Shown here in pieces: positions 5,967-57,087 of a DNA stretch of 64,000 nucleotides. Below the pieces are notes generated by a model. The model was given only the letters and a program-made list of their open reading frames with translations, was not told the DNA's origin and searched no databases. The stretch is from assembly GCA_030145325.1 (NCBI GenBank), contig JAQYVW010000009.1, forward strand, positions 473 to 64,472. The letters are read 5' to 3'. The position numbers and the translations under genes were made by a program. Numbering within the stretch: the first letter of the stretch is position 1; each line of letters opens with the position of its first letter. Origin of the DNA: Desulfurivibrionaceae bacterium. Its GTDB lineage: Bacteria > Desulfobacterota > Desulfobulbia > Desulfobulbales > UBA5123.

Positions 5967-7415
5967 ATGATTTCTCAGCACCAATATCGCCGATTTCCCG
6001 CTCCGGTCGCACTGTTTTCCATGGCAATCCTCTCGATCTTCCTTTTTTCCGGCTTTGCCTGGGCAAGTACCCCACCAAGCTTTGCCGACCTGGCCGAAAA
6101 TCTCGGCCCCACCGTGGTCAACATCTACACAACCCAAACCGTAAAAGCTCGGTCCCCACATGGCAATCAATTCGGCAACGGCAAGGAAATACCGGAACAG
6201 TTCCGCCGCTTCTTCGGGATTCCTGAGGGGAACGCTCCTCACGGCCAAACCCAACCGCAACGGAAGATGAAACGAACCAGCCTCGGTTCTGGAGTTATTA
6301 TCTCCAAGGATGGTTTTATTGTTACCAACAATCATGTGGTGGAGAATGCCGACGAGATCAAGATACGCCTCACCAATCTCGAGGAATACGACGCCAAACT
6401 CATTGGTCGTGACCCCAAAACAGATCTGGCTTTGATCAAAATTGAGCCTAAAAACGATTTACCAGTGGCAAAATTCGGAGATTCTGAAAAATTACGGGTA
6501 GGTGACTGGGTACTAGCCATTGGTAACCCCTTCGGCCTGGAACAAACGGTCACCGCTGGCATTGTCAGCGCCAAGGGCCGCACCCTGGGCACCACTCCCT
6601 ATGAAAACTTTATCCAAACCGATGCCTCCATCAACCCCGGCAATTCCGGTGGCCCTCTCTTCGACCTGAAAGGCAGGATGGTGGGAATCAACACCGCTAT
6701 TTACAGTCGGGGCGGCGGCAACATTGGCATCGGCTTCGCCATCCCGGTCAAAATGGCTAAGAACGTCATCAACCAATTAAAGGAACATGGCACAGTGGTT
6801 CGCGGCTGGCTGGGAGTAATGATCCAACAGGTTACCCCGGAACTGGCAAAACAGTTCAACCTGGAGCACCCCATTGGCGCCCTAGTTGGTGAAGTTGCGC
6901 CGGATAGCCCGGCTGACAAGGGCGGCATCAAGGACGGAGATGTCATCATTGCCTTTCAAGACCATGAGATAACCCAGATGAGCATGCTGCCATCAATGGT
7001 CGCCCAGACCCCTGTTGGCACTGAGGCTAAAGTCACTGTTGTCCGGCAAGGAAAGAAGAAAAACCTTACCATCAAGATCGCTAAACTCCAGGAAGAGGCG
7101 GTGGCGGCAAATCAATCCGGCACCGACGCCGGTCGCGAACTTGGCCTCACCGCGCAGGAACTCACTCCCGAACTGGCCAAGTCCCTTGACCTTGAAGACG
7201 AAAAGGGCGTTATCGTCGCCGATGTCGAGCCAGGTAGCCCTGCCGCCGAAACAGGCATCCATCGTGGCGACCTGATTCTTGAGATCAACCGGAATCAAAT
7301 TAAAGAAATTAAGGATTATTCGTCTGCCCTAAAAAAGAGTAAAAAAGGGGATTCCATCCTCCTCTGGATCAAACGCGGCGATCATAAACGGTTTGTGGTC
7401 ATCTCCGGCGAATAA
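5967..7415 (+). CDS. htrA: Periplasmic serine endoprotease DegP/DegQ/HtrA with two PDZ domains
   Basis: Trypsin-like motifs are present (TNNHVV, DLALIKI, GNSGGPLF) along with two PDZ regions. I set the start at the ATG at 5967, which has an AAGGAG Shine-Dalgarno and yields a signal peptide (...LFSGFAWAS). The ORF-track start at 5790 adds 59 unlikely residues. Confidence 0.9.
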   Translation: MISQHQYRRFPAPVALFSMAILSIFLFSGFAWASTPPSFADLAENLGPTVVNIYTTQTVKARSPHGNQFGNGKEIPEQFRRFFGIPEGNAPHGQTQPQRKMKRTSLGSGVIISKDGFIVTNNHVVENADEIKIRLTNLEEYDAKLIGRDPKTDLALIKIEPKNDLPVAKFGDSEKLRVGDWVLAIGNPFGLEQTVTAGIVSAKGRTLGTTPYENFIQTDASINPGNSGGPLFDLKGRMVGINTAIYSRGGGNIGIGFAIPVKMAKNVINQLKEHGTVVRGWLGVMIQQVTPELAKQFNLEHPIGALVGEVAPDSPADKGGIKDGDVIIAFQDHEITQMSMLPSMVAQTPVGTEAKVTVVRQGKKKNLTIKIAKLQEEAVAANQSGTDAGRELGLTAQELTPELAKSLDLEDEKGVIVADVEPGSPAAETGIHRGDLILEINRNQIKEIKDYSSALKKSKKGDSILLWIKRGDHKRFVVISGE

Positions 7416-40228: not shown

Positions 40229-42553
40229 ATGAGCAGCGAAATGGATCTTGATGCCCTGCATGGCTTTCTCGATGAGTCAAGCGACTCCATGCAAGGCATT
40301 GAAGCAGACTTTATCGATCTCGAAAGAGATCCGACCAATATGGAGATCATCAACCGGATATTCCGCCCCATTCACAGCCTGAAAGGGAACTCCGGCTTCT
40401 TCGGCCTAACCAACATCAACAAATTCGCCCACCGCTTGGAAAACCTTCTCGACACCGTCAGACGAGGTGAACTTGCGATCACCAAAGAGATCATCGACAC
40501 CCTTCTCATCGGTGCAGATTTTCTTCGCCAAATGGTGGAACGGGTCTATGAGGACCCCACCGACGTCCTTTTGCGTGACAACGAAGAAGAGTTTTTAGGC
40601 AAGGTCGAACAATTCAAACCGGAAAAACCAACCGGCTCAATTGAGAGCATCCTGACCCTTGAAAAACTCGTCAACGAGGCGATGGATCACGGCATCTCCC
40701 CCACGGACAACACGTTAATCAGTACCCTGCTGGGAAAAATCGAAAAAGCCAACCAAGAAATCAAGCTCATCCTCAGTGACGTCAAAAACGCCGACTCCAC
40801 TGCCAAGCGATCCACCGCCGCCGCTTATATGATTGGTGATGAGGATCACTCCGCAGTGGTCAAACCGCTGCTTGATGTTGCAAGCCAAATGGACAAAAGA
40901 GCAACGGTTGACCGCCAACTCCTAGCTGAGTTCGAAAAATCCCTGGTCACCCTGAACGAGCTTCTTAAAGACGACAGTGACGCCGCCCATGAGTTAGAAG
41001 AACTGCAATCCATGAGCAACTTTCTTGACGATGAATTACTCATCACCAGCCAAGAATTCACCTCATCGACCACAGCATCCATTGATGCCGTTCTGAGCAA
41101 ATTCGACATCGTCAAAACCGAAAGCAAAGATATCGAAGCTGAATCATTTGGCAAGCTCGGAGAAATCCTTATCTCCCAAGACAAGGTCTCACCGGAACAA
41201 CTCACCGATGCGCTTAAAAAACAGAAGAAAGTTGGTGAAATACTGGTGGACGATGGCATTCTCAAGGACCAAGACCTCAAGGAAGCATTAACCATCCAGC
41301 AAAAAAATGCCTTGGCAGAGCATACCAAAAATGAACCTGTTGCTCGCGAAGTTAAAAAAACCATCCGTATCGATCAAGACAAGCTGGACAGTTTTGCCAA
41401 CTTCGTCGGCGAGCTGTTTATCAATATCGATTCTTTCAGCTTCCTGAAAAAGCAATTGGAAGAAACCGACGTCGACTTTGACCTCATGGCCCGCTTCACC
41501 AATACCATCACCTCCCTTGACGAGATGGTGGACACCCTGCAAGAAAGCATCATGGGGATCAGAAAGGTGCCCATCGACACCCTATTCAAACGCTTCCCCC
41601 GCGTAATCCGCCAACTAGCAGGCTCACTGAACAAGGATATCAACTTCAAAATCGTTGGCGAAGATACCGTCATCGACAAAGATCTGCTGGAAAAAATCGA
41701 GAATCCACTGGTCCATATGCTGCGAAATTCGGTGGATCATGGCATCGAAACGCCCGAAGAACGAACCAACAACAACAAGTCTGGCACCGGCACCTTGGAA
41801 CTGAAAGCGGCGGTGGATGAAAATTATGTTTATATCACCATCAACGATGACGGTAAGGGCATTGACCCGCAGATCATCAAGAAAGTGGCGCTGAAGAAAG
41901 AGCTCATCACCCCGGAAGAAGCTGAACAGATGCCAGACAAGGAGTTGATCAACCTCATCTTCAAACCGGGCTTCAGTTTAGCCGAAAAAATCAGCGATGT
42001 CTCAGGACGCGGCGTCGGCATGGATGTGGTGCAGTCGGTATTAAAAGAAACCAGCGGCACGGTGGAGGTAAACTCGGTAATTGACCAAGGCACTAAGGTT
42101 ACGATTAAGATTCCGTTAACCAAAACCCTGGTTGCCAAGGAGGCAATGATTGTTTCCGCTTATGAGCGAACACTGGCCATCCCCTCCGAGGATATTACCG
42201 CCACCATTGAAGCTAAGGACGAGGAAGCAACAAGACTTTTTTCCGGCGACAATTGTATCCAATACCACGGCGCGATTTATCAAGTCATCGATCTTGGCGC
42301 TTTCCTATTCCCCAAAACCATCCGCCAGCGACAAGATGCAGACCGGCATGTTATTATTGTCAGTGAAAAACATAACATCGCCCTATTAGTTGACGAAGTA
42401 TTGAGCCACCAAAAAATTGTCGTCAAAAACTTCACCGGCGGGTACAAAGCTTTAGACAGGGTCCGAGGCATCAACGGCTTTACAATCTTGGGTAACGAGG
42501 ATATTATCCTCATTGCCGATGTACAAAATATTACCGCCCACGCTGTTGATTAA
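40229..42553 (+). CDS. cheA: CheA-type histidine kinase 1 (Hpt, MshEN-like motif pair, dimerisation, HATPase, CheW-like)
   Basis: It has Hpt (FRPIHSLKGNSGFFGL), a P3 region (IRIDQDKLDSFANFVGEL), a kinase core (HMLRNSVDHGIE, DDGKGID, GRGVGMDVV) and a C-terminal CheW-like domain. The LGEILI.../VGEILV... tandem motif lies at aa 309-358. Confidence 0.9.
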   Translation: MSSEMDLDALHGFLDESSDSMQGIEADFIDLERDPTNMEIINRIFRPIHSLKGNSGFFGLTNINKFAHRLENLLDTVRRGELAITKEIIDTLLIGADFLRQMVERVYEDPTDVLLRDNEEEFLGKVEQFKPEKPTGSIESILTLEKLVNEAMDHGISPTDNTLISTLLGKIEKANQEIKLILSDVKNADSTAKRSTAAAYMIGDEDHSAVVKPLLDVASQMDKRATVDRQLLAEFEKSLVTLNELLKDDSDAAHELEELQSMSNFLDDELLITSQEFTSSTTASIDAVLSKFDIVKTESKDIEAESFGKLGEILISQDKVSPEQLTDALKKQKKVGEILVDDGILKDQDLKEALTIQQKNALAEHTKNEPVAREVKKTIRIDQDKLDSFANFVGELFINIDSFSFLKKQLEETDVDFDLMARFTNTITSLDEMVDTLQESIMGIRKVPIDTLFKRFPRVIRQLAGSLNKDINFKIVGEDTVIDKDLLEKIENPLVHMLRNSVDHGIETPEERTNNNKSGTGTLELKAAVDENYVYITINDDGKGIDPQIIKKVALKKELITPEEAEQMPDKELINLIFKPGFSLAEKISDVSGRGVGMDVVQSVLKETSGTVEVNSVIDQGTKVTIKIPLTKTLVAKEAMIVSAYERTLAIPSEDITATIEAKDEEATRLFSGDNCIQYHGAIYQVIDLGAFLFPKTIRQRQDADRHVIIVSEKHNIALLVDEVLSHQKIVVKNFTGGYKALDRVRGINGFTILGNEDIILIADVQNITAHAVD

Positions 42554-44190: not shown

Positions 44191-46500
44191 ATGTCCGACA
44201 AGCTGACGGATGAACAAGTAGAGATCATTGAAGAGTTCATTTGTGAAGTCCGCGACCTGATAGAGACTGCGGAGTCCGATATAATCGGTTTATCCTCCAT
44301 TTACAAAAACAATGAGTCCCAAACCTCAACCGAAAACCTAAAAACTCTTCACACCATCTTTCGTTGCTTCCATTCCATCAAGGGTGGCGCAGCCTTCCTG
44401 CAGTTCAACAATATGGTCACTTGCGCGCACAGCGCGGAAAATCTTCTCGATCTACTCCGAAATGATGAAATAACCCTTCTGCCAGGGCATATCGATCTGC
44501 TCTGCCAAGCCTGCGACTTCATCTCGATTGCTCTGGAACAACTTGAAACCAACCTCAATGATCACGAGCTCACAGAGCAAGCTAACGCCATCCACGATAA
44601 ATTTGAACGCGCCATCGCTGGTATCCCAGAACCGGAAGAATCCCCATCTGAGAACGAAAGCAATGACGACAGTTTATTAATCAATCTTGACCTCAACCCT
44701 TCTCAACTTATCAACCCGGACACACTTCACCATTTCATCGAGGAGTCCAGGGAACTTATTCAGAAAAGCGAAGCGGCTTTACTTGACTGGAGCAAAAACC
44801 CTAACGACTCCGACCCAGAACTAGTTGCGCAACTTTTTCGCAACATTCACAGCATTAAAGGCAACAGCGGTTTTCTCGGATTCTCCGACATGGAGCGCTT
44901 GGCCCACGGGATGGAGAACCTCCTTGATGCTGCCAGAGAAGGCGCCGCCATTAACCGCGGCAAAGCAGCAGAGACCCTCTTGGGGCTTGTAGACATAATC
45001 AGTCATGCCATGGAAGATATCGCCCAGGGAGAAGAATGTAAAATCAAAGGCATAGGCCTTCATCTCGAGGCATTGGCTGATCTTCTCCCCGACACCCCTT
45101 CCTCCAATGTACCGTTACCAAAACTTGGTGAAATTCTTGTCGATCAAGGCGTTGTCAGTGAAGACGCCCTGGAAAATGCCTTGGATGTCCAGAATAAACC
45201 TCTCGGTGAAATCCTGGTCGAAACCGGCGCAGCCACAGAAGAGCAAGTCGCGCAGGCCGTGCAAACTCAGAAGAAACAAGCAATCGTCCCAGGCAAGGCC
45301 ACAAAAACAACCGCTCGTCAGGACATCCGAGTTGACCTCGGCAAACTTGACAGTCTCATCAACCTCATCGGCGAAATGGTTATTGCTGAAAATATGTTGA
45401 TCAACAACCCTGATCTGCAAGATCTGGAATTGGAAAATTTCAACAAAGCCGGCCAGCACATGGACAAAATCATCCGTGAATTACAGGAAATGGCCATGTT
45501 TATCCGCATGGTGCCGGTGGCAGGCCTCTTTCGGCGCATGACCCGGCTGGTACATGATCTTTCCCGAAAATCCGGCAAAAAAGTTGACCTGCAACTGGTT
45601 GGAGAGACCACCGAGGTCGACAAAACGGTTATCGAATTAATTACTGACCCCCTGGTTCACCTTCTTCGCAACTCCATGGATCACGGCCTTGAGCCCCCAG
45701 AGGAACGCTTGCAAGCAGGCAAAAAAGATACCGGGATTCTACGTTTGTCCGCAACCCATGAAGAAGGCGAAGTCCTGATCACCATCACCGATGATGGGCG
45801 GGGGTTGAACAGAGAAAAAATCATCGCTAAAGCCATGGAAAAAGGTGTCCTTGACGATGATGGATCTCAGATGAGCGATTCAGATGTCTTTAACCTCATT
45901 TTCCTGCCCGGCTTTTCCACCGCCGACCAGGTTACCGATGTTTCTGGTCGCGGTGTTGGGATGGATGTGGTTCGCAAGAACCTTGAAAAGATCAAGGGCA
46001 AAATTGAAATTAAGAGCAAGCAAGGGGGCGGCACCACCATTATCTTGCGCATTCCGCTGACCCTGGCAATCATCGACGGGATGATGATCCGGGTGGGCAC
46101 TGCGCTATACATCGTGCCGCTTCTCTCAATCCGCGAATCATTCCGTCCCAGCCACGAATTGATTACCGTTTCTCCAGATGGTCAAGAACTGGCCAAGGTA
46201 CGCGAGAACCTGCTGCCGGTGGTGAGACTCCACGATCTTCACAAAATCAGCCCAGACTTCGATGAACTAGACAAAGGTATCCTCATTGTCCTTGAAGGCC
46301 AGGATCTTAATTTTTGCCTTTTTGTCGACGAAATCATGGGTCAGCAACAGACGGTTATCAAAGGTCTATCAGAATACATCTCCGTACTTGGCAATGTCGG
46401 CGGTGTTTCCGGCTGCACCATTCTCGGCAATGGCGATGTCTGCCTGATCCTTGATGTACATTCATTGGTGGATGTCGCTCTCAGCGATAACGAAGAGTGA
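44191..46500 (+). CDS. cheA: CheA-type histidine kinase 2 (two Hpt domains, MshEN-like motif pair, dimerisation, HATPase, CheW-like)
   Basis: It has Hpt1 (FRCFHSIKGGAAFLQF), Hpt2 (FRNIHSIKGNSGFLGF), a P3 region (IRVDLGKLDSLINLIGEM), a kinase core (HLLRNSMDHGLE, DDGRGL, GRGVGMDVV) and a CheW-like C-terminus. The tandem LGEILV motif lies at aa 311-360. Confidence 0.9.
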   Translation: MSDKLTDEQVEIIEEFICEVRDLIETAESDIIGLSSIYKNNESQTSTENLKTLHTIFRCFHSIKGGAAFLQFNNMVTCAHSAENLLDLLRNDEITLLPGHIDLLCQACDFISIALEQLETNLNDHELTEQANAIHDKFERAIAGIPEPEESPSENESNDDSLLINLDLNPSQLINPDTLHHFIEESRELIQKSEAALLDWSKNPNDSDPELVAQLFRNIHSIKGNSGFLGFSDMERLAHGMENLLDAAREGAAINRGKAAETLLGLVDIISHAMEDIAQGEECKIKGIGLHLEALADLLPDTPSSNVPLPKLGEILVDQGVVSEDALENALDVQNKPLGEILVETGAATEEQVAQAVQTQKKQAIVPGKATKTTARQDIRVDLGKLDSLINLIGEMVIAENMLINNPDLQDLELENFNKAGQHMDKIIRELQEMAMFIRMVPVAGLFRRMTRLVHDLSRKSGKKVDLQLVGETTEVDKTVIELITDPLVHLLRNSMDHGLEPPEERLQAGKKDTGILRLSATHEEGEVLITITDDGRGLNREKIIAKAMEKGVLDDDGSQMSDSDVFNLIFLPGFSTADQVTDVSGRGVGMDVVRKNLEKIKGKIEIKSKQGGGTTIILRIPLTLAIIDGMMIRVGTALYIVPLLSIRESFRPSHELITVSPDGQELAKVRENLLPVVRLHDLHKISPDFDELDKGILIVLEGQDLNFCLFVDEIMGQQQTVIKGLSEYISVLGNVGGVSGCTILGNGDVCLILDVHSLVDVALSDNEE

Positions 46501-46668
46501 TTCACCCGCATCGCACGTCCCTCCCCGCCCTCCACACTACAAAGCTGTAAACATCCCACGACTTTGTTAACAATTACGTAACACTCACCCCACACCTTTC
46601 TCGCTCGCCCCTTCACCCTACGTATAAAAAGTTCCTAATTACAACACAATGAGATGGCTGTTCCAGCC

Positions 46669-46685
46669 TGGCACATTTCGTGCAT
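46669..46685 (+). promoter_or_regulatory. Putative sigma-54 (-24/-12) promoter for MCP-1
   Basis: The sequence is TGGCACATTTCGTGCAT. GG and GC are separated by exactly 10 nt, as in the TGGCAC-N5-TTGCW consensus. It lies about 110 nt upstream of the MCP-1 ATG. Confidence 0.55.
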
Positions 46686-46794
46686 TTCCTTCTCAAGTTC
46701 GAGGAAGATGCTCAATCACCTTCACTGGTCTAAAAAATGGCATCGTCAAAACAAAAAAGCCATTACCGGCCTTTCATTTTATGGAGAACTATTA

Positions 46795-49737
46795 ATGTTC
46801 AAGAATCTTAAACTTACCAAAAAACTCCTTATTGCTTTTCTCGGCGTAGGGCTAATCCCTTTTGCTGCCGTTGGCCTTACCGCTCTACTTAAAGCCAGTA
46901 GCGCCCTTGATCAGTCGGCATTTAATCAATTGCAGTCGGTTCAGGCAATCAAGAAAGCTCAGATCCAACGCTTCTTCACCGAGCGTAAAGGCGACATGGC
47001 CGTGTTACTGAATACCACTGCCGCTTTTGACGATGAGGTAAGCAGTAAAATTTACGCCATCCAAAACAACAAGAAAGAAGCGCTGGAACTGATCAGCCAG
47101 CAATGGTTCACCGATATCAAGATCCAGCAAGGTCAGGACATTTCCAGCAAAGGTTTGCCGCACTTCCAAAATTATCTCAAAACAGGCAAGAAATCGGCGC
47201 AATACAAACACTACGCCACGCAAGTTTCGCAATTCATGAAGGCCACCGGCTACTACGATTACTTTGTCATCGACAAATCCGGCCTTTGCGTCTTCACCGA
47301 CGCCAAGGAGGCGGATTACAAAACAAACCTTCTTAACGGCCCCTACAAAGACTCCGGCCTTGGAGTCGCCACCAAACGCGCCTTCAATGGAGAAACAGCC
47401 ATTGAAGATTTCGCTTCCTATGCACCCTCAAACGGCGCCCCAGCTGCTTTTATTGCTGCCCCGATCCGAAGAGGGAAAAACATCATCGGGGTTGTCGCCC
47501 TGCAAATCCCCCATGAAAAGGTGCAAGCCATTGTTGCCGAACGCACCGGCCTCGGCATAAGCGGCGAGGCTTACCTTGTGGGCAGAAAGGACGGCAAAAC
47601 CGGCTATCGCAGCAATCGCGTCATCAAGAACGGCAAGCTCGGCCAGGATAAAAATGGTGCCGACATCAACAAGGCGCTGGTAGGCGAAGCAGGGGTTCGC
47701 TTCAAGAAGGGCAGCACCGGCGACATGGAACTGGTCGCCTATACACCGGTTAAGATCCCCGGCCTTGACTGGGCTTTAATCACCTCCATGAGTCTCGAAG
47801 AGGCCATGGCTCACAAAGAAAAAGGCGATAAAGAGGATTACTTTGCAAAATACGTCAGGCAATACGGCTACTACGACCTCTTCCTGATTGAACCGGAAGG
47901 CAAGGTTTATTACTCGGTGACCCATGAGGCCGATTACGATACCAATATGATTAATGGCAAGTACGCCGATTCCGGGCTCGGTAAACTGGTCCGCCGGGTT
48001 ATTCAGGAAAAGAAATACGGGGTAGCAGACTTCGCCCCCTATGCACCCAGCAACAACGAACCAGCCGCTTTCATCGCCGCTCCTGTTTTTCGCAACGGCG
48101 AACTCCAACAGATCGTCGCCCTGCAACTGTCACTGGAGGCGATCAACAACATCATGCAGCAGCGTGAAGGGATGGGCGAAACCGGCGAGACTTATCTGGT
48201 TGGCCCGGACAAACTTATGCGTTCGGACTCCTTCCTTGACCCCACCAATCATTCGGTCAAAGCCTCGTTTGCCAACCCAACCACCGGCAGTGTCAACACC
48301 GAGGCCGCCCGCGAAGCACTGGCCGGACAGTCCGATTCTAAAATCATCATCGACTATAACGGCAATCCGGTTCTTTCCGCCTACACCCCACTGAAGGTTG
48401 GCGACAGCACCTGGGCAGTCATCGCCGAAATTGATGAAGCAGAGGCCTTTGCGGCCATCAACACCTTGAAATGGGTAATAGGTATCGTCTTTGTCGTCGG
48501 CATGGCCGCCATTATCGTCGTTGCCCTGACCATCACCCGTTCCATCACTCAGCCGGTGAGCAAAACCGTCCTCATGCTTGACGAGATGGCCAAGGGTCAC
48601 CTGGACAACCGACTAAACATGGATCGAGGCGACGAGATCGGCCAGATGGCTAAGACCATGGACTCTTTTGCCGATAGTTTGCAAAACGAAATGGTGGCAG
48701 CGCTGAACAAGCTGGCTGACGGCGACCTAACCTTTGATGCCAATCCACACGATGAGAATGACACCATCAGAAACTCGCTGAAAAAAACCGGTGACGACCT
48801 GAACAAACTGATCTCCGAAATCCTCACCGCCACCGAACAGATCGCCAGCGGTTCCGGCCAGGTTTCCGATTCCAGCCAGGCCCTCTCCCAAGGGGCGACA
48901 GAACAGGCGGCATCACTTGAGCAGATCACCAGCTCCATGACCGAGATGGGCTCACAAACCAGATTAAACGCCGAGAACGCCACCCAGGCCAATCAGTTAG
49001 CCAGCCAGACCAGGAGTGCAGCAGAAAGCGGCAATACGAAAATGCAGGAGATGGTCTCGGCCATGGGTGAAATCAACGAGGCGGGCCAAAGCATCTCCAA
49101 GATCATCAAGGTTATTGATGAGATTGCCTTTCAGACCAACCTACTGGCCTTGAACGCGGCAGTGGAAGCGGCCCGGGCCGGGCGTCATGGCAAGGGTTTT
49201 GCGGTGGTTGCAGAAGAGGTACGCAACCTGGCTGCCCGTAGCGCCAAGGCAGCTAAAGAAACCGCAGAGCTCATCGAAAGCTCGGTGGAAAAAACCAAGA
49301 ACGGCACCCAAATCGCCGAGGCGACCAGCGAGGCACTGGCCGAAATAGTCGGCTCGGTCACCAAGGTCACCGATCTTGTCGGCGAAATCGCTGCCGCTTC
49401 TAATGAGCAGGCGCAAGGAATCAACCAGACAAATCAGGCCTTGGGCCAGATCGATCAGGTAACCCAGCAGAACACCGCCAGCGCCGAAGAGAGCGCCGCT
49501 GCCTCGGAAGAGCTTTCCGGCCAGGCCATGCACATGAAAGAGATGATGAGCCGCTTCCGGGTCCGCGACATGGGCCAAGGAGGGATGCGCCAGCAACCCA
49601 TGTCACGGCAACAAAACGGCTGGGGAAACGCAACGCAACAACCACTGCCGCAACCACAGGCCCCAGGCCATTTACCCCGCCCCTTTGCGCCAAGTGAAAT
49701 AATAACCTTGGACGACAAGGAATTCGGTAAATATTAA
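46795..49737 (+). CDS. Methyl-accepting chemotaxis protein 1 (duplicated double-Cache-like periplasmic sensor, HAMP, MA domain)
   Basis: I set the start at the ATG at 46795, which has a GGAG Shine-Dalgarno 8 nt upstream and aligns with the MF(K/S)..KL..KLLIAFL N-termini of the other two MCPs. The signalling hairpin is [21 protein letters not shown]. The ORF-track start at 46654 adds 47 non-homologous residues. Confidence 0.9.
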
Positions 49738-49762
49738 TCGCTATAATAGCGAATGTTTCCAA

Positions 49763-49797
49763 ATGGCGTCCCTAGGTTCAGGGACGCCATTTTTTTT
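49763..49797 (+). terminator. Rho-independent terminator after MCP-1
   Basis: ATGGCGTCCCT pairs with AGGGACGCCAT in an 11-bp stem with a 6-nt loop, followed by T7. Confidence 0.85.
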
Positions 49798-49931
49798 AAT
49801 TTTTTTCTATCAAATAACTACCCAAAAGCGTTCAACAAAAGTGTACACATCTATTCAATTTTGTTGAACATTCACCTTACGCCTAACAATGCACATATGC
49901 ACAACACCTTTAAATCATTGTAAAAAATAAT

Positions 49932-49960
49932 TTGACAGCTTTACAACAGTTACTGATAAT
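49932..49960 (+). promoter_or_regulatory. Putative sigma-70-type promoter of cheW-mcp cassette 1
   Basis: TTGACA (49932-49937), a 17-nt spacer, then GATAAT (49955-49960). The block is conserved in cassette 2. Confidence 0.55.
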
Positions 49961-50095
49961 AAAAATCCTAGGCATTCTCAGTTGGTAATATCATAAAACA
50001 CTGCCCCTTAACCCCATTTCCAAAAGACTCCTTTGGCAACCTCACTTTCGCAACAGGAATTGCTAAAATAGAGCATTTTAACAAGGAGAGAAGCT

Positions 50096-50602
50096 ATGGC
50101 TGAAGATCAAGTTGTCGACATGGAGGATGATCTCTACGACGACGAAGACACCATGAAGGACAAGTACCTCACCTTCCATCTGGCCGGTGAGGATTACGGC
50201 CTTGACATCGTTTTTGTCACCGAGATCATCGGCATCCAGAAAATCACCGAAGTGCCGGACATGCCTAACTTTGTTAAGGGGGTAATCAACCTACGCGGCA
50301 AGGTAATCCCGGTGATGGACGTACGGTTACGTTTCAACTTGCAGGAACGTGATTACGACGAACGCACCTGTATCGTAGTCGTTGATATTAACGGCACCGC
50401 CGTCGGCCTTGTTGTTGATCAGGTCAACGAGGTGGCCGATATCCCCGAGGCACAGGTCGAGCCGCCCCCACGCACCACCAAGGGGACGACCAGCCGCTTC
50501 TTAAAGGGCATGGGCAAGGTGGATGAAGAAGTCCGCATCCTGCTCAATGTCGACAAGCTGCTCTACGACGAAGAAATGGAAATGCTTGCTGGTGCGGCGT
50601 AA
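50096..50602 (+). CDS. cheW: CheW coupling protein (copy 1)
   Basis: It is a 168-aa canonical CheW domain with an acidic N-terminal extension (MAEDQVVDMEDDLYDDED). Confidence 0.9.
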   Translation: MAEDQVVDMEDDLYDDEDTMKDKYLTFHLAGEDYGLDIVFVTEIIGIQKITEVPDMPNFVKGVINLRGKVIPVMDVRLRFNLQERDYDERTCIVVVDINGTAVGLVVDQVNEVADIPEAQVEPPPRTTKGTTSRFLKGMGKVDEEVRILLNVDKLLYDEEMEMLAGAA

Positions 50603-50648
50603 TCTTTCCTGAGAAAAAATCACAACATAACAAATAACGAGGTGAACA

Positions 50649-53588
50649 ATGTTTAGTAGACTTAAATTGGGCCAAAAACTTCTTATCGCCTTCCTCTGCG
50701 TCGGGGTTATCCCCTTTGCGGTGGTCGGCCTAAGTTCGCTGATCAAGGCCAGTAATGCCTTGGAGTATGCAGCCTTCAACCAGCTGAACGCCGTTCAGGG
50801 AATCAAAAAGAAACAGATTGAAAATTTCTTCAACGAGCGCAAAGGCGACATGACGGTTTTGCTTGATACCATTGAAACATTTGTCGATGAAAACGCCGAC
50901 AAAATGTTGGCCATCCAGAAGAACAAGAAGGAAGCCATTGAAGAGATTGGTGAGCAATGGATCTTGGATGTTGAAGGAATGTCCGACGATGATCTTCTCA
51001 GCGAAGGCATAGATCACTGTAAGCAATTTATTAAAACCGGCAAAAAAACCGCAGCATATCGTGAATTTTCCCTTGAAGTTGATACGTTTACCAAAAGGTC
51101 CGGCTATTACGATTTCTTCGTCATCGACACAACGGGTCTTTGTGTCTACAGCACTGCCAAAGAAGCGGACTACAAATCAAATCTCCTCACCGGTCCCTAC
51201 AAAAATAGCGGCCTGGGCCACGCCACCCGCAACGCCATGCAGGGCAAGACTTACATTGATGACTTTTCCCCCTACGCCCCTTCAAACGGTGAGCAGTCTG
51301 CTTTTATTGCCGCCCCGATTAAAGATGGCGACAAGATTGTCGGGGTTGTAGCTTTACAGATCCCCACCGACGAGATTCAAGCCATCACGGCTGACCGCAC
51401 CGGCCTTGGTCACAGCGGCGAAGCGTACCTGATCGGCACTCTTGACGGCCAGATCGCGATGCGCTCCAATCGGACCGTCAAGAGTGACAAAATCGGCGAC
51501 GCAAAAAAAGGACAAGATATCGACAAGGCCATGGCTGGCGAAACCGGTTGGATGTTCAAGAAGGGCAGCAGCGGCGCCATGGAGATGAGTACCTATACCC
51601 CTCTTGAGATCCCCGGTCTTAAATGGGCGATGGTCACCTCCATGAGCCTAGAGGAGGCAATAGCCAAAAAAGAAGAAGGCGCTAGCGAGGATTACTTCTC
51701 TCGTTATATCCAGCAGTACGGCTATTACGATCTCTTCCTCATTGAACCGGGTGGGCAAGCGTATTACACGGTGAGCAAGGAGGCGGATTACAAAACCAAC
51801 ATGGTAAACGGAAAATACGCCGACTCGAACTTGGGCGAACTGGTCCGGCAGGTCCTGCAAACCAGGCAGTACGGGGTGGCCGATTTCGCCCCTTACGCAC
51901 CCTCAAACAACGAACCCTGCGCTTTTATCGCTGCTCCGATCATCCACCAAGGCAAGGTGGAACAGGTCATCGCCATGCAGTTGTCGCTTGAAGCGATCAA
52001 CTCCATCATGCAACAACGCGACGGGATGGGCGAAACCGGAGAAACCTACTTGGTCGGCCCTGATAAGTTGATGCGTTCCGATTCCTTTCTTGACCCCACC
52101 AACCATTCGGTCAAGGCCTCCTTTGCCAACCCGGCCACCGGTAGCGTTGACACCGAGGCCGCCCGCGAGGCCCTGGCAGGCAGGAACGATGCCAAGATCA
52201 TTATTGATTACAACGGCCAACCGGTTCTTTCCGACTATGCACCGCTGAAGATCGGTGACAAAACCTGGGCAGTCATCGCCGAGATCGATGAGGCCGAGGC
52301 CTTTGCCGCCGTCAACTCCTTGAAATGGGTAATAGGCATCGTCTTTGTCATCGGCCTCGGTGCCATTATATCCGTAGCGTTGATGATCACCCGCTCCATT
52401 ACCCAACCGGTAACCAAAACCGTGCACATGCTTGAGGAGATGGCCAAGGGCCACCTGAATATCCGCCTCAACATGGACCGTGCCGATGAAATCGGCCAGA
52501 TGGCCAAAACCATGGACGCCTTTGCCGACAGCCTGCAGAACGAGATGGTGGCGGCGCTCAACAAACTGGCCGCTGGCGATCTCACCTTTGACGCCACCCC
52601 CCATGATGAAGCCGACGCGATTAGAAACTCTCTGAAGAAGACCGGAGACGATCTCAATACCCTGATCAGCGACATCCTCACCGCCACCGAACAGGTGGCC
52701 AGCGGTTCTGGCCAGGTCTCAGACTCCAGCCAATCCCTCTCTCAAGGTGCCACCGAACAGGCGGCCTCCCTGGAAGAGATCACCAGTTCAATGACCGAGA
52801 TGGGCTCACAGACCAAGTTGAATGCCGAAAATGCCACCCAGGCCAACCAATTGGCAGGCCAAACCAAAACTGCGGCTGAAGGCGGCAACGCCAAAATGCA
52901 GGAGATGGTCACCGCCATGGGCGAGATCAACGAGGCAGGGCAAAACATCTCGAAGATCATCAAGGTTATCGACGAGATCGCCTTCCAGACCAACCTGTTG
53001 GCCTTAAACGCAGCGGTGGAAGCCGCCCGCGCCGGTCGCCATGGCAAGGGCTTTGCCGTGGTCGCCGAAGAGGTCCGCAATCTCGCCGCTCGTAGCGCCA
53101 AAGCGGCCAAGGAAACCGCCGAGCTCATCGAGGGCTCGGTGGAAAAAACCAAGAACGGTACCAAAATCGCCGAAGCAACCAGCGATGCATTGGCCGAAAT
53201 CGTTACCTCGGTCACCAAGGTGACGGACCTGGTCGGTGAGATCGCCGCCGCCTCCAACGAGCAGGCGCAGGGGATCAACCAGACCAATCAGGCCTTGGGC
53301 CAGATCGATCAAGTGACCCAGCAGAACACCGCCAGCGCTGAAGAGAGTGCGGCGGCCTCGGAAGAACTATCCGGGCAGGCCATGAACATGAAAGAAATGA
53401 TGAGCCGCTTCACGGTTCGTGATATGGGCAGCGGCTCTGGCCGTCAGCAAGCCTCCCTGCCGAGTCCAACTCAATCCACGCCACAAAACGGCTCTTGGGG
53501 AGGAGGCCAGCAAACAGCCGCGAGAAAATCCGCTCCGGCCCCCAGCGACCTCATCGCCCTTGACGACAAGGAGTTCGGCAAGTACTAA
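50649..53588 (+). CDS. Methyl-accepting chemotaxis protein 2 (duplicated double-Cache-like sensor, HAMP, MA domain)
   Basis: It is a full-length paralogue of MCP-1 with the same architecture and the same C-terminal LDDKEFGKY tail. Confidence 0.9.
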
Positions 53589-53611
53589 CAACGTAAAAAT
53601 ATCATAAAAAA

Positions 53612-53650
53612 ATGGCGTCCCTGGTTTTCCCAGGTGACGCCATTTTTTTT
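53612..53650 (+). terminator. Rho-independent terminator after MCP-2
   Basis: ATGGCGTCCCTGG pairs with CCAGGTGACGCCAT (one bulge), followed by T8. It is homologous to the MCP-1 terminator. Confidence 0.85.
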
Positions 53651-53780
53651 ACTATTTCTATCGACCTACCACAAGAAGGCAGTTCAACAGATTTGAACAT
53701 ATGTTCTCAGTTTTGTTTAACATTTCACAAGACCTAACCACAAGCACACCCACACCTTCAACATAATTACAAAAAATAAT

Positions 53781-53810
53781 TTGACACCTTCATGTACGTC
53801 TGCTGATAAT
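53781..53810 (+). promoter_or_regulatory. Putative sigma-70-type promoter of cheW-mcp cassette 2
   Basis: TTGACA (53781-53786), a 17-18-nt spacer, then (T)GATAAT. It is a paralogous copy of the 49932 promoter block. Confidence 0.55.
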
Positions 53811-53944
53811 AAAAACTCTAGGCATTATCAGTTGGCAATATAGTAAGATCCTAATCCTTATCACCATCACAAAATGTTCTTTTGCAACTACACCTCCGCA
53901 AGAGGAATTGCAAAAACAGAACACTTTAAACCAGGAGAGAAGCA

Positions 53945-54451
53945 ATGGCAGAAGATCAAGTTGTCGACATGGAGGATGACCTCTACGACGACGAAGACAC
54001 CATGAAGGACAAGTACCTCACCTTTCACCTGGCCGGTGAGGATTACGGCATCGACATCGCCTTTGTCACTGAGATTATCGGTATCCAAAAGATTACCGAA
54101 GTTCCGGACATGCCTGACTTTGTCAAGGGGGTAATCAACCTGCGCGGCAAGGTGATCCCGGTGATGGATGTGCGCTTGCGCTTTCATCTGGATGAGCGCG
54201 ATTACGACGAACGCACCTGTATCGTGGTGGTTGATATCAACGGCACTGCTGTCGGTTTGGTGGTTGATCAGGTTAACGAAGTAGCCGACATCCCGGAAGC
54301 GGATGTGGAGCCGCCGCCCCGCACCACCAAGGGTAGCAGCAGCCGCTATCTAAAAGGAATGGGCAAGGTGGAAGAACAAGTCCGCATCCTCCTGAATGTG
54401 GACAAACTACTCTACGACGAAGAAATTGAACAAATCGTCGCGGCAGCTTAA
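53945..54451 (+). CDS. cheW: CheW coupling protein (copy 2)
   Basis: It is 168 aa. By my manual alignment it differs from copy 1 at 16 positions. Confidence 0.9.
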   Translation: MAEDQVVDMEDDLYDDEDTMKDKYLTFHLAGEDYGIDIAFVTEIIGIQKITEVPDMPDFVKGVINLRGKVIPVMDVRLRFHLDERDYDERTCIVVVDINGTAVGLVVDQVNEVADIPEADVEPPPRTTKGSSSRYLKGMGKVEEQVRILLNVDKLLYDEEIEQIVAAA

Positions 54452-54497
54452 TCAATCGCCACAACAACACTTTATAAAACTAAAATGAGGTATTCAT

Positions 54498-56678
54498 ATG
54501 TTCAGTAGACTGAAACTAGGTCAAAAACTTCTTATCGCCTTCCTCTGCGTCGGGGTGATCCCCTTCTCGGTGGTAGGTCTCACCGCCTTGCTCAAAGCCA
54601 GCGCCGCCTTAAATCAATCCTCCTTTAACCAGCTCAATGCGGTGCAGGGGATCAAGAAAGCGCAGATCACCACCTTCTTTGACGAACGGCATGGCGATAT
54701 GAACGTGCTGGTGAACACGGTGGGCAATTTCATTAAAGAAGCCGGCACCATTGATGCCGCCATGGCAGGCCTGACCGAGGGAGGTACTGACTACTTCGCC
54801 GACTACATCAAGGATTACGGTTACTATGACCTCTTCCTCATTGACGCTCAGGGGAAGGCGTTCTACACCGTCGCCAAGGAGTCTGATTACAACAGTAACT
54901 TTGTCAACGGCAAGTACGCCAGCTCCAACCTGGGCAAACTGGTTCGTCAGGTCATCCAGACCAGACAATACGGGATGGCCGATTTCGCCCCTTACGCCGC
55001 CAGCAATAACGAGCCATGCGGCTTCATCGCCGCGCCACTTATTGAAAATGGTGAGGTAAAATTGGTCATCGGTCTACAGTTGTCGCTGGAAGCAATGAAC
55101 CGGATTATGCAACAGCGCGACGGGATGGGCAAAACCGGCGAAACCTATCTGGTCGGTTCCGACAAGTTGATGCGTTCTGATTCCTTCCTTGACCCCACCG
55201 GCCATTCGGTTAAAGCCTCTTTTGCCAACCCAGCCACCGGCAGTGTCGACACCGAGGCCGCCCGTGATGCGCTGGCCGGGCGCACCGATTCGAAAATCAT
55301 CATCGACTACAACGGCAACCCGGTTCTCTCCTCCTATGCACCAATGAAAATCGGCGACACCACCTGGGCGGTTATCGCCGAGATCGACGAGTCGGAAGCC
55401 TTTGCCGCCGTCAACGCCTTGAAATGGGTCATCGGCATCGTCTTTGTCATCGGTGTGGCCGGTATTATCACCGTGGCCCTGATGATCACTCGCTCCATCA
55501 CCCAGCCGGTGGGCAAGACGGTACACATGCTCGAGGAAATGTCCAAAGGCCACCTTGACTTACGCCTTAACATGGACCGCGCCGATGAGATCGGCCAGAT
55601 GGCCAAAACCATGGACTCCTTTGCCGACAGCCTGCAAAAAGAGATGGTGGGCGCGCTAAACATGTTAGCCGACGGCGATCTTACCTTTGACGCCACCCCC
55701 CAAGACGAGAACGACGCCATCAGGAACTCGCTGAAGAAAACCGGCGATGACCTCAATATCCTGATCACCGATATCCTCACCGCCACCGAACAAGTGGCCA
55801 GCGGCTCCGGCCAGGTATCAGATTCCAGCCAAGCCCTTTCCCAGGGTGCCACTGAACAGGCAGCATCCTTGGAAGAGATCACCAGTTCCATGACCGAGAT
55901 GGGCTCTCAAACTAAACTGAATGCCGAAAACGCTACTCAGGCTAACCAGTTGGCCAGTCAGACCAAAACCGCTGCGGAAGGCGGCAACGCCAAGATGCAG
56001 GAAATGGTTTCGGCCATGGGCCAGATCAACGAGGCAGGTCAGAATATCTCCAAGATCATCAAGGTTATCGATGAGATCGCCTTTCAAACCAACCTTCTTG
56101 CCTTAAACGCAGCCGTGGAAGCGGCACGGGCTGGTCGTCATGGCAAGGGCTTTGCTGTGGTTGCCGAAGAGGTACGAAACCTCGCCGCTCGTAGCGCCAA
56201 GGCCGCTAAAGAAACCGCTGAGCTCATTGAAGGGTCGGTGGAAAAAACCAAGAACGGCACCGCCATCGCCGAATCAACCAGCGAAGCGTTGGCTGAAATT
56301 GTTTCCTCCGTAACCAAGGTGACTGATCTGGTGGGAGAAATCGCTGCCGCTTCCAACGAACAGGCCCAAGGCATCAACCAGACCAATCAGGCCCTGGGCC
56401 AGATTGATCAAGTAACCCAACAGAACACTGCCAGCGCCGAAGAAAGTGCGGCCGCCTCGGAAGAGCTTTCCGGCCAAGCGATGAATATGAAAGAGATGAT
56501 GAGCCGCTTCAAGGTTCGCGACATGGGCCGTAGCGCCGGAATACGCCAACAACCTACAAGGCCAACGCCGCAGCAAAACGACTGGGGTACCAGTCAGCAA
56601 AAACCGCTGCCGAGAGCTCAGGCTCCTGCCGCCCATGAGGTTATAGCCTTGGATGACAAGGAGTTTGGTAAATACTAA
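54498..56678 (+). CDS. Methyl-accepting chemotaxis protein 3 (single double-Cache-like sensor, HAMP, MA domain)
   Basis: Its N-terminus, TM segments, HAMP, MA domain and tail match MCP-2. It lacks the first sensor module, roughly 250 aa. Confidence 0.9.
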
Positions 56679-56705
56679 ATAAACAAAGAGAATAATAACC
56701 TACTA

Positions 56706-56738
56706 GCGCCGTTGGCATTGCCAACGGCGCTTTTTTTT
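56706..56738 (+). terminator. Rho-independent terminator after MCP-3
   Basis: GCGCCGTTGGC pairs with GCCAACGGCGC in an 11-bp stem with a 3-nt loop, followed by T8. Confidence 0.85.
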
Positions 56739-56740
56739 CA

Positions 56741-56817
56741 CCAGCGCCTGAAGGCATCAGCCTCGGAAGACCTTTCTGCCCAGGCCTTGCCCATGAAGGA
56801 AATAATGAATCGACCGC
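56741..56817 (+). pseudogene. Relic of an MCP 3' end
   Basis: CCAGCGCCTGAAG..GCCTCGGAAGACCTTTCTGCCCAGGCCTTGCCCATGAAGGAAATAATGAATCG aligns, with indels, to the ...[25 protein letters not shown] coding region of the three MCPs. There is no upstream MCP body. Confidence 0.6.
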
Positions 56818-57052
56818 AAAATGCGGGCAAGGTTCCAATTGATTTAATCAGGCTTCATATTCATCTTTCACCGTGGAGCCTTTTTAAGCTCAAGATGATT
56901 TTTTCAAAAAAACAGGAACAAAATCAAAACACGTTTGTCTTACTAACTAAGGAGCAACAACAAGGGTCCTCCACCCTTGCTAAATTATTAGTTACTCCTT
57001 ATTTTCTCTCTCCTTCTTGATAGGCTTCGGTTAAACCGAAGCAAAACTGAAA

Positions 57053-57087
57053 GGGCCGACGCCTCCCCGCGTCGGCCCTTTTTTTTT
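57053..57087. terminator. Rho-independent terminator, probably bidirectional
   Basis: GGGCCGACGC pairs with GCGTCGGCCC in a 10-bp stem followed by T9 on the + strand. On the - strand the stem is followed by TTTCAGTTTT, 40 nt after the ThDP-enzyme stop. Confidence 0.7.

Follow-up and report, generated by a model that had tools for sequence, protein, structure and literature searches.

An old tandem array of cheW-chemoreceptor cassettes in a Desulfurivibrionaceae genome and a probable conversion tract in its promoter/leader regions

Introduction

Paralogous chemoreceptors are found in more than 60% of genomes (PMC6974571). When such copies lie side by side and resemble each other in their non-coding DNA as well, are they young, are they kept alike by gene conversion, or are they old and held by selection? 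The question is raised by a locus in a 64,000-nt stretch of DNA (hereafter, the window) from Desulfurivibrionaceae bacterium (assembly GCA_030145325.1, contig JAQYVW010000009.1). In this locus, two consecutive units each contain a terminator, a promoter, a cheW gene and a gene for a methyl-accepting chemotaxis protein (MCP). A first-pass annotation took the similarity of their non-coding DNA as a sign of recent duplication or ongoing gene conversion, with sensors remodelled inside a fixed signalling scaffold. We found it probable that the cheW-mcp array, attached to a cheA cluster, is old and vertically inherited and its scaffold is under purifying selection, with one old conversion tract of ~300 bp covering the promoter and leader. 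The window sequence represents one genome; all positions below are window coordinates unless another locus is named, and the array lies on the + strand.

Results

Duplication of coding and non-coding DNA

The gene order of the array is cheA, MCP1, IG1, cheW1, a 46-nt spacer, MCP2, IG2, cheW2, a 46-nt spacer and MCP3, where IG1 and IG2 are intergenic regions (Table 1). IG1 and IG2 align end to end, with 261 of 342 aligned positions identical (76%) and 30 gap positions (BLASTN E 3e-44). Their Smith-Waterman local score was 134 vs 11.4±1.3 for shuffles (z ~95), a similarity that extends far beyond generic promoter and terminator features. Unit alignment and repeat families both gave collinear homology of all parts in the two adjacent units. 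The products of cheW1 and cheW2 differ at 16 of 168 residues, exactly as the first-pass annotation had counted, and the genes are 84% identical in nucleotides. Every other element that it had listed was recovered in or near its place: homologous terminator hairpins after MCP1 and MCP2, a TTGACA-N17/18-GATAAT promoter block in each copy (11/12 match each) and the quoted strings of the 5' untranslated region in both copies. By alignment, the cassettes are true tandem duplicates, and the duplicated unit is complete: terminator, promoter, leader, cheW and mcp.

MCP3 was also correctly said to lack one sensor module: ~250 residues are gone, facing MCP2 residues 80-342. The direct repeats are spaced by 3849-3854 nt in their 5' parts and by 3099 nt in their 3' parts, because MCP3 is without these ~250 codons. 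Tandem Repeats Finder found nothing in the region, since the period is too long and the copies are too diverged. We also considered a mobile element or a miniature inverted-repeat transposable element as the origin of the intergenic regions and rejected it: the window holds no other copy, and apart from the terminators and one palindrome there are no strong inverted repeats.

Table 1. Features of the array and its flanks in window coordinates; promoters and terminators are predicted
Feature	Position	Strand	Description
cheA, second of two	44191..46500	+	Pfam Hpt, H-kinase_dim, HATPase_c and CheW domains; directly 5' of the receptor array
MCP1	46795..49737	+	Tandem-dCache chemoreceptor paralogue; HAMP and MCPsignal; aligned with MCP2 and MCP3
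Cassette units	49738-53588 and 53589-56678		Collinear: terminator, promoter, ~130-nt leader, cheW, mcp
IG1	49738-50095		Intergenic region MCP1/cheW1 (IG1/IG2 356-358 nt)
Intrinsic terminator 1	49761..49800	+	After MCP1; AAATGGCGTCCCT...AGGGACGCCATTTTTTTT; 13-bp perfect stem and T8; dG -22.4 kcal/mol, z -6.2
Promoter/leader segment, cassette 1	49804..50095	+	Proposed conversion tract, paired with 53651-53944
Imperfect palindrome	49830..49869	.	GTTCAACAAAAGTG...CAATTTTGTTGAAC; 14-nt arms, 93% complementary; ~65 nt 5' of the -35 hexamer of cassette 1
Promoter 1	49932..49960	+	TTGACA-N17-GATAAT; 11/12 sigma-70-type match
cheW1	50096..50602	+	PF01584, E 5e-42
MCP2	50649..53588	+	Two dCache_1 in tandem, HAMP, MCPsignal, C-terminal EFGKY
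IG2	53589-53944		Intergenic region MCP2/cheW2
Intrinsic terminator 2	53606..53652	+	After MCP2; 14-nt perfect outer arms and T8; dG -27.5 kcal/mol, z -8.5
Promoter/leader segment, cassette 2	53651..53944	+	Proposed tract partner; 71% identical to 49804-50095
Promoter 2	53781..53810	+	TTGACA-N18-GATAAT; 11/12 sigma-70-type match
cheW2	53945..54451	+	PF01584, E 4e-42
MCP3	54498..56678	+	Single dCache_1 chemoreceptor; HAMP and MCPsignal
Terminator 3	56705..56739	+	After MCP3; 12-bp stem and T8; dG -23.5 kcal/mol
MCP 3'-end relic	56740..56808	+	~70 nt; codes for ...ASEDLSAQALPMKEIMN...; in frame with no intact gene

Age of the duplication and selection on the coding parts

The recency of the duplication was not borne out. 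By the Nei-Gojobori method, which is imprecise for dS near 1, pS was 0.54-0.61 and dS ~1.0-1.5, near saturation, in cheW (0.96) and in every MCP segment, the signalling domain included (1.0-1.1, like the rest of the gene). The 46-nt cheW-mcp spacers of the two cassettes are only at background identity (~55-58%). Alignment with cassette 2 gave 82.9% identity across 2849 nt for the related locus L082 and 82.5% across 2039 nt for L084. Between cassettes 1 and 2 (W1 and W2), dN was 0.055 and dS 0.96 for cheW and dN was 0.107 for MCP; between W2 and L082, the corresponding values were 0.030, 0.58 and 0.057. Orthologues of MCP3 were found on L082, L084 and L016, with a sensor identity of 86.6-87.3% in amino acids to L016. 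Because the orthologues of cheW2-MCP3 in L082 and L084 are closer to cassette 2 than cassette 1 is, these distances date the duplication to before the splits from both lineages.

Amino acid identity is 93-96% in the signalling domains (~84-85% in nucleotides) and 58-80% in the sensors. The dN/dS ratio ranged from 0.02-0.05 (HAMP and signalling domain) to 0.11-0.27 (sensor). The low ratio of the scaffold points to purifying selection. Identity at third positions of conserved codons was 45-75% all along MCP1/MCP2 and MCP2/MCP3, and no tract above 80% was found at these positions in either pair. On these substitution patterns, it is purifying selection and not conversion that keeps the signalling scaffold of the window genome. 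The proposal of sensor remodelling on a conserved signalling scaffold agrees with our data, which show a one-module sensor difference beside a conserved scaffold. Gene conversion has to be divided: a conversion-like process is indicated for the non-coding part, over ~300 bp of promoter and leader only, but the claim fails for the signalling scaffold of the window genome.

Separate history of the promoter/leader region

We compared the post-terminator intergenic region with cheW in a four-way alignment of W1, W2, L082 and L084. The two window cassettes are 71.4% identical in the intergenic region and 84.0% in cheW. The respective identities were 51.4% and 89.0% for W2-L082, 44.5% and 84.6% for W2-L084, and 45.1% and 85.0% for L082-L084. 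Orthologous intergenic regions are therefore at background (44-51%) despite cheW identities of 84-89%. Informative sites were classed as P (W1=W2), O (W2 equal to the orthologue) or X (W1 equal to the orthologue). With L082, the counts were P=83, O=28 and X=28 in the intergenic segment 49804-50095 vs P=27, O=98 and X=44 in coding positions 50222-50885 (Fisher 1e-16). With L084, they were 101/24/23 vs 43/83/44 (Fisher 4e-14). The pattern switches at the cheW border, from paralogues together in intergenic DNA to orthologues together in coding DNA.

The mismatches between IG1 and IG2 are evenly spread (variance/mean 0.70-0.79 vs 0.69 expected from a binomial; permutation P = 0.30), which fits neutral decay rather than patchy constraint. 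Their Jukes-Cantor distance (~0.3) is smaller than the dS of 0.6-1.0 to L082. The simplest reading of these comparisons is that the intergenic DNA would be mostly unconstrained, with fast turnover. The sequence of events may be as follows. The cassettes were duplicated long ago, before the split from the L082/L084 lineages. Later, a non-reciprocal recombination (gene conversion) would have carried a promoter/leader stretch of ~300 bp over from one cassette into its neighbour; the tract would then have decayed evenly to ~71-76% identity, having diverged by ~25-30% since. A low dS in cheW codons 1-42 (0.38) was considered as an extension of the tract and discarded, as the same codons have a similarly low dS between genomes (0.39-0.53).

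The conserved leader islands of the first-pass annotation did not survive this comparison. They are not statistically distinct from a uniform identity of ~70%, and they were also rejected as functional elements: the dispersion of mismatches equals the binomial expectation, the islands are absent from the L082 orthologue, and the leaders showed neither an unusual folding energy (z +1.0 and -0.15) nor an Rfam match. An exact-match scan of metagenomes with a leader motif gave 0 hits.

Alternative explanations

The alternative that deserves the most attention, although we consider it unlikely, is constraint only: IG1 and IG2 would be as old as the genes and kept 71-76% identical by selection on ~300 nt of promoter and leader, with no conversion. 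The promoter hexamers, the terminator and the distance from promoter to ATG are indeed conserved across species, the identity of IG1 and IG2 climbs to 79-88% toward the ribosome-binding site, and a palindrome lies 5' of promoter 1. Against it stand the intergenic regions of L082 and L084, which are at background despite cheW identities of 84-89%. Mismatches without excess clustering, leaders without a stable or shared fold or an Rfam family, and a palindrome that is degraded in IG2 and absent from L082 also argue against it. A conversion tract is therefore the reading we favour, with several points weighing against it. Only one genome has both IG1 and IG2, our searches turned up no genome of the same species and no sister genome, and the best cheW relatives are 92-95% identical. 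The conversion is deduced from discordance with fairly distant orthologues (dS 0.6-1.0), and the site patterns would look the same under lineage-specific purifying selection on IG1 and IG2, or if the intergenic regions of L082 and L084 had turned over independently. The dates suffer from the imprecision of dS near 1 noted above. Neither the direction nor the exact ends of the tract can be fixed, and the terminator is too conserved to help. Promoters, terminators and operon structure are predictions from sequence, and the count of sigma-70-type matches in the scanned region is not above that of shuffles (9 vs 7.3±2.7). The stoichiometric and coupling rationale given below comes from general chemotaxis knowledge.

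Other alternatives would explain the similarity of the cassettes without an old array and a separate promoter/leader tract. Concerted evolution of the signalling scaffold, ongoing in the window genome as in Campylobacter jejuni Tlp2/3/4, could account for the contrast between signalling domains and sensors, for the loss of the orthology signal in the former (P=32, O=29, X=39) and, by analogy, for the clear mosaics in relatives. It is nevertheless very improbable, since synonymous divergence and third-position identity are no different in the signalling domain than elsewhere, saturated synonymous sites give just such a pattern of equal thirds, and the HAMP region of MCP1 is closer to receptors of Bin57 (90.6%) than to MCP2 and MCP3 (86.5-87.1%). 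A recent tandem duplication of the whole cassette, with all similarity residual, would give collinear parts, non-coding DNA included, as observed. However, a dS of ~1.0-1.3, cheW-mcp spacers at background, the closer orthologues of cheW2-MCP3 and the divergence of the sensors make it extremely unlikely. That the repeat was mis-joined or collapsed in a metagenome-assembled contig is conceivable in principle, as the locus lies on a single NCBI contig of 64,824 nt with no strain replicate and UBA5121 contigs break inside cassettes. Among the relatives, several contigs of metagenome-assembled genomes (MAGs) end inside cassette repeats. This chance seems close to negligible, because the copies differ by 15-45%, too much for collapse or confusion, and the same gene order was assembled independently in L081, L082, L083 and L084.

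Predicted operon structure and promoters

After each of the three receptor genes comes a G+C-rich hairpin directly followed by a T run, the form of an intrinsic terminator, which predicts termination there. The hairpin of terminator 1 is nearly identical in L082, and that of L081 carries compensatory changes. The homology of the terminators does not extend to the one after MCP3 (56705-56731), yet this terminator is kept in the L082 orthologue, whose alignment reaches window position 56734. Promoters 1 and 2 were the two best sigma-70-type matches (hexamers TTGACA and TATAAT, spacing 16-18 nt) in a scan of 46.4-57.2 kb (10.8 kb). In W1, W2, L081a, L082 and L084, the -35 hexamer lies 164-168 nt before the cheW ATG, while the leader sequence is not conserved; the promoter form in the orthologues is TTGACA-N-(G/C)C(N)GATAAT. 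Three features are held by selection, as their conservation in the orthologues indicates: the terminator hairpin, the hexamers of the promoter and its distance to the ATG. We thus predict that every cassette forms an insulated bicistronic operon.

The promoter consensus for sigma-28 (FliA) is TAAA-N15-GCCGATAA. The -10 region shared by the window, L081, L082 and L084 has the form (G/A/C)C(N)GATAAT and follows TTGACA at a distance of 14-15 nt. It resembles the sigma-28 element GCCGATAA, with a 6-7/8 fit (ACTGATAA, GCTGATAA, GCAGATAA and CCCGATAA), but the -35 hexamer is TTGACA and not TAAA. The cassette promoters may depend on FliA. A sigma-54 promoter in the leader (TTGGCAAC...TCGCA) was rejected on inspection of the sequences: the spacing from GG to GC is wrong and IG2 has no GG. 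In addition to the palindrome 5' of promoter 1, words like TGTT(N)AACA occur 5' of MCP1 (46540-46580).

In the proposed scheme, a cassette is self-contained: it has an intrinsic terminator of its own and a strong promoter (TTGACA-N17/18-GATAAT), both predicted, and then a ~130-nt leader, cheW and the gene for a dCache chemoreceptor. Each receptor would therefore be made together with its own dose of CheW. The receptors would plug into a common CheA-based array, and their periplasmic sensors, which are tandem dCache domains in MCP1 and MCP2 and a single one in MCP3, would supply different inputs. With a shared HAMP and signalling scaffold and the same C-terminal pentapeptide, all three receptors could join one CheA array and one adaptation system.

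Receptor domains and sensors

HAMP (PF00672) and MCPsignal (PF00015, E 4e-54 to 8e-53) were found in all three receptors. Each ends in EFGKY (49723-49737, 53574-53588 and 56664-56678) after a variable Q/P-rich linker with 53-65% amino acid identity. This pentapeptide fits the xZxxZ criterion (Z = F, W or Y; PMC7390727) and may therefore tether CheR/CheB. CheW1 and CheW2 cover profile positions 1-137/138 of PF01584. They are CheW-family proteins and not equivalogs of Escherichia coli CheW, because the NCBIfam equivalog model scored 126 bits, below its cut-off of 260 bits.

The sensor of MCP2 consists of module A (50886-51674) and module B (51675-52328), which are 37% identical to each other. 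PF02743 (dCache_1) matched the first half of MCP2 with 50.3 bits and the second half with 38 bits, below the cut-off of 45 bits; MCP3 scored 46.4 bits over profile positions 2-239/240, and the segment-wise search gave no Pfam match for the first half of MCP1. Full-length Pfam scans had missed the tandem dCache_1 regions of MCP1 (46795-48500) and MCP2 (50649-52350). In an AlphaFold2 (AF2) model of residues 1-600 of MCP2 (pLDDT 83.7), a ~105-residue helix leads into four PAS-like modules, and long N- and C-terminal helices flank the periplasmic domain. Matches of this model in the PDB were single dCache ligand-binding domains (PctA/B/C, DctB, CtaA and Tlp3), which cover half of the model; the best were those of PctA/PctB/PctC (Foldseek E 6.5e-10, target TM-score ~0.68). 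None of the PDB matches spans both dCache halves of MCP2.

A word-indexed search with only 12 weak hits had suggested that module A is unique to the window genome. An exhaustive search overturned this, with 2136 hits for the tandem-dCache region at E ≤ 1e-30, widespread in metagenomes. About 70 of the best 150 representative clusters aligned end to end over the 534-residue region. As tandem-dCache homologues are so widespread, loss of a domain is the simpler and more likely origin of the single dCache in MCP3, judging from these alignments.

Gene neighbourhood

MCP1 is a third receptor paralogue that lies 5' of both cassettes, without its own cheW or a cassette-type promoter. The 294-nt spacer between cheA and mcp1 has no similarity to IG1 or IG2 (local alignment z 2.6 and 0.9); on this comparison, we rejected a lost cheW or cassette-type promoter 5' of MCP1. 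A mechanical open reading frame places the start of MCP1 at 46654, 47 codons 5' of the homologous ATG at 46795, which GGAG precedes. Neither MCP2 nor MCP3 has anything that corresponds to the extension 46654-46794, which probably remains untranslated.

Upstream, the segment 39794-46500 holds two complete cheA genes (40229-42553 and 44191-46500), with an Hpt-receiver protein between them and a CheY-like receiver 5' of the first. L081 and L083 show the same order. Neither cheB nor cheR turned up in the genes that we checked at 27-64 kb of the window.

Downstream of the array lies a convergent gene for a thiamine-pyrophosphate (TPP) enzyme. The relic directly after the terminator of MCP3 aligns locally to the 3' ends of MCP1, MCP2, MCP3 and the L081 and L082 MCPs (79-83%; repeat family D8). 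It is frameshifted, with no upstream gene body. In L082, a further MCP of the CZB type follows the orthologous cassette; a receptor may therefore have been deleted at the relic site of the window. An Rfam match to the alphaproteobacterial small RNA ar14 at 56952-57084 is sub-threshold (36 bits vs a gathering score of 58.8 bits, E 8e-4). It overlaps the strong terminator at 57049-57082, which is bidirectional and separates MCP3 from the TPP-enzyme gene; this hairpin probably drives the match.

Arrays and cheW/mcp pairing in relatives

A scan of species representatives and a protein search found the closest cheW relatives (85-95% in amino acids) in Desulfobulbaceae/Thermodesulfobacteriota MAGs and metagenome contigs; no exact copy of a window CheW protein was found beyond the NCBI contig of the window itself. 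Arrays of the form (cheW-mcp)n are found in relatives too, with cassette numbers from 2 to 4 or more and sensors of the dCache, 4HB or CZB type. On L081, Hpt-RR and cheA are followed by a cassette with a dCache receptor (cheW-MCP724) and another with an MCP of at least 666 aa. L082 has an MCP, one cassette (cheW-MCP731) and MCP732 (CZB). L085 and L086 have three cassettes with 4HB or other sensors. In UBA5121, three contigs together hold at least four copies of cheW, and several of these contigs break off within a cassette. The Hpt-RR/cheA/cheW-mcp synteny recurs in L081, L083 and L004. In L081 and L083, cheW directly follows cheA; in the window, MCP1 lies between them.

In a comparison of L081 4304-7029 with the window cassettes, the nearest relative of cheW1 is cheWa of L081 (95% in amino acids, dN 0.035), but the receptor that follows this cheWa is nearest to MCP3 and the L082 MCP (dN 0.078-0.083). 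Such variable cheW/mcp pairing would argue mildly against strict partner specificity. Trees of cheW group the copies by genome. In adjacent cassettes of UBA5121, the cheW copies are 90-100% identical in nucleotides and the following sensors are unrelated (40-46%); this genome also has a near-identical receptor pair (97%). A receptor pair of Bin57 has a third-position identity of 57-78% in the sensor and of 85-100% from the second transmembrane helix on, and amino acid identity is 96.5-100% in its signalling halves, next to a sensor identity of 79%. The homogenised loci that we compared were L001 3107-3619 vs 6139-6660, L005 vs L016 and L003 vs L004. Conversion around the scaffold thus holds for the family; in the window genome, it concerns the promoter/leader only.

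Discussion

The locus is a warning that tandem paralogues with similar non-coding DNA need not be young: here the genes are ancient duplicates, while the promoter/leader region seems to have a separate and younger history. It also documents a repeated, self-contained cheW-plus-receptor operon as a unit of receptor expansion in sulfur-cycling sediment bacteria. The part that is homogenised differs by genome: the promoter in the window, cheW in UBA5121 and the signalling domain in Bin57. A broader and rather doubtful proposal is that the cheW-mcp cassettes of this Desulfobulbaceae clade form a recombining array, in which the conserved boundaries (terminator, promoter, cheW and signalling domain) serve as crossover sites and promoter-only conversion is adaptive, keeping anciently diverged receptors co-regulated. 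If this were true, sensors, cheW and promoter/leader would be exchanged or homogenised independently. The array also offers a natural setting for the question of whether a receptor requires a CheW dose or a CheW partner of its own.

Comparison with known systems

Among known systems, Tlp2/Tlp3/Tlp4 of C. jejuni are likewise paralogous dCache_1 receptors with divergent sensors and a similar cytoplasmic signalling part (PMC9769880). Their signalling domains are identical, their sensors are ~30% identical, and they vary in copy number among strains, with pseudogene remnants (PMC9769880). The signalling domains of the window have instead diverged, to the amino acid and nucleotide identities given above, so that with dS ~1 their similarity is selective and not concerted. 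Also unlike the C. jejuni receptors, the window cassettes are adjacent and each receptor has its own cheW, promoter and terminator (MCP1 is without its own cheW).

Chemotaxis clusters with multiple cheW genes are also known from Geobacter and Rhodobacter sphaeroides (PMC2577667), with several cheW genes in or beside one che cluster in genomes of the Deltaproteobacteria type. Additional CheW proteins have been proposed to let further MCPs in or to couple MCPs specifically (PMC2577667). Those descriptions concern gene content only, whereas the window has a repeating terminator-promoter-cheW-mcp unit. In the clade of the window, moreover, the cassettes vary from 2 to 4 or more among relatives and the pairings are not fixed.

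Diversification of dCache ligand-binding domains after duplication is shared with PctA/PctB/PctC of Pseudomonas aeruginosa (PMC6974571). Sequence identity to the Pct ligand-binding domains is, however, only 13-19%, and MCP1 and MCP2 differ from the Pct receptors in having two dCache domains in tandem. The single dCache of the MCP3 line beside the two of MCP1 and MCP2 recalls the sensor simplification by module loss of the report 'Bacterial sensor evolved by decreasing complexity' (PMC11804620); in the MCP3 line, the loss would concern a whole dCache and not one of its modules. The array thus belongs to a known kind, that of paralogous chemoreceptors and multi-cheW clusters, and is not a new system; its only unusual point is that homogenisation is limited to the promoter/leader.

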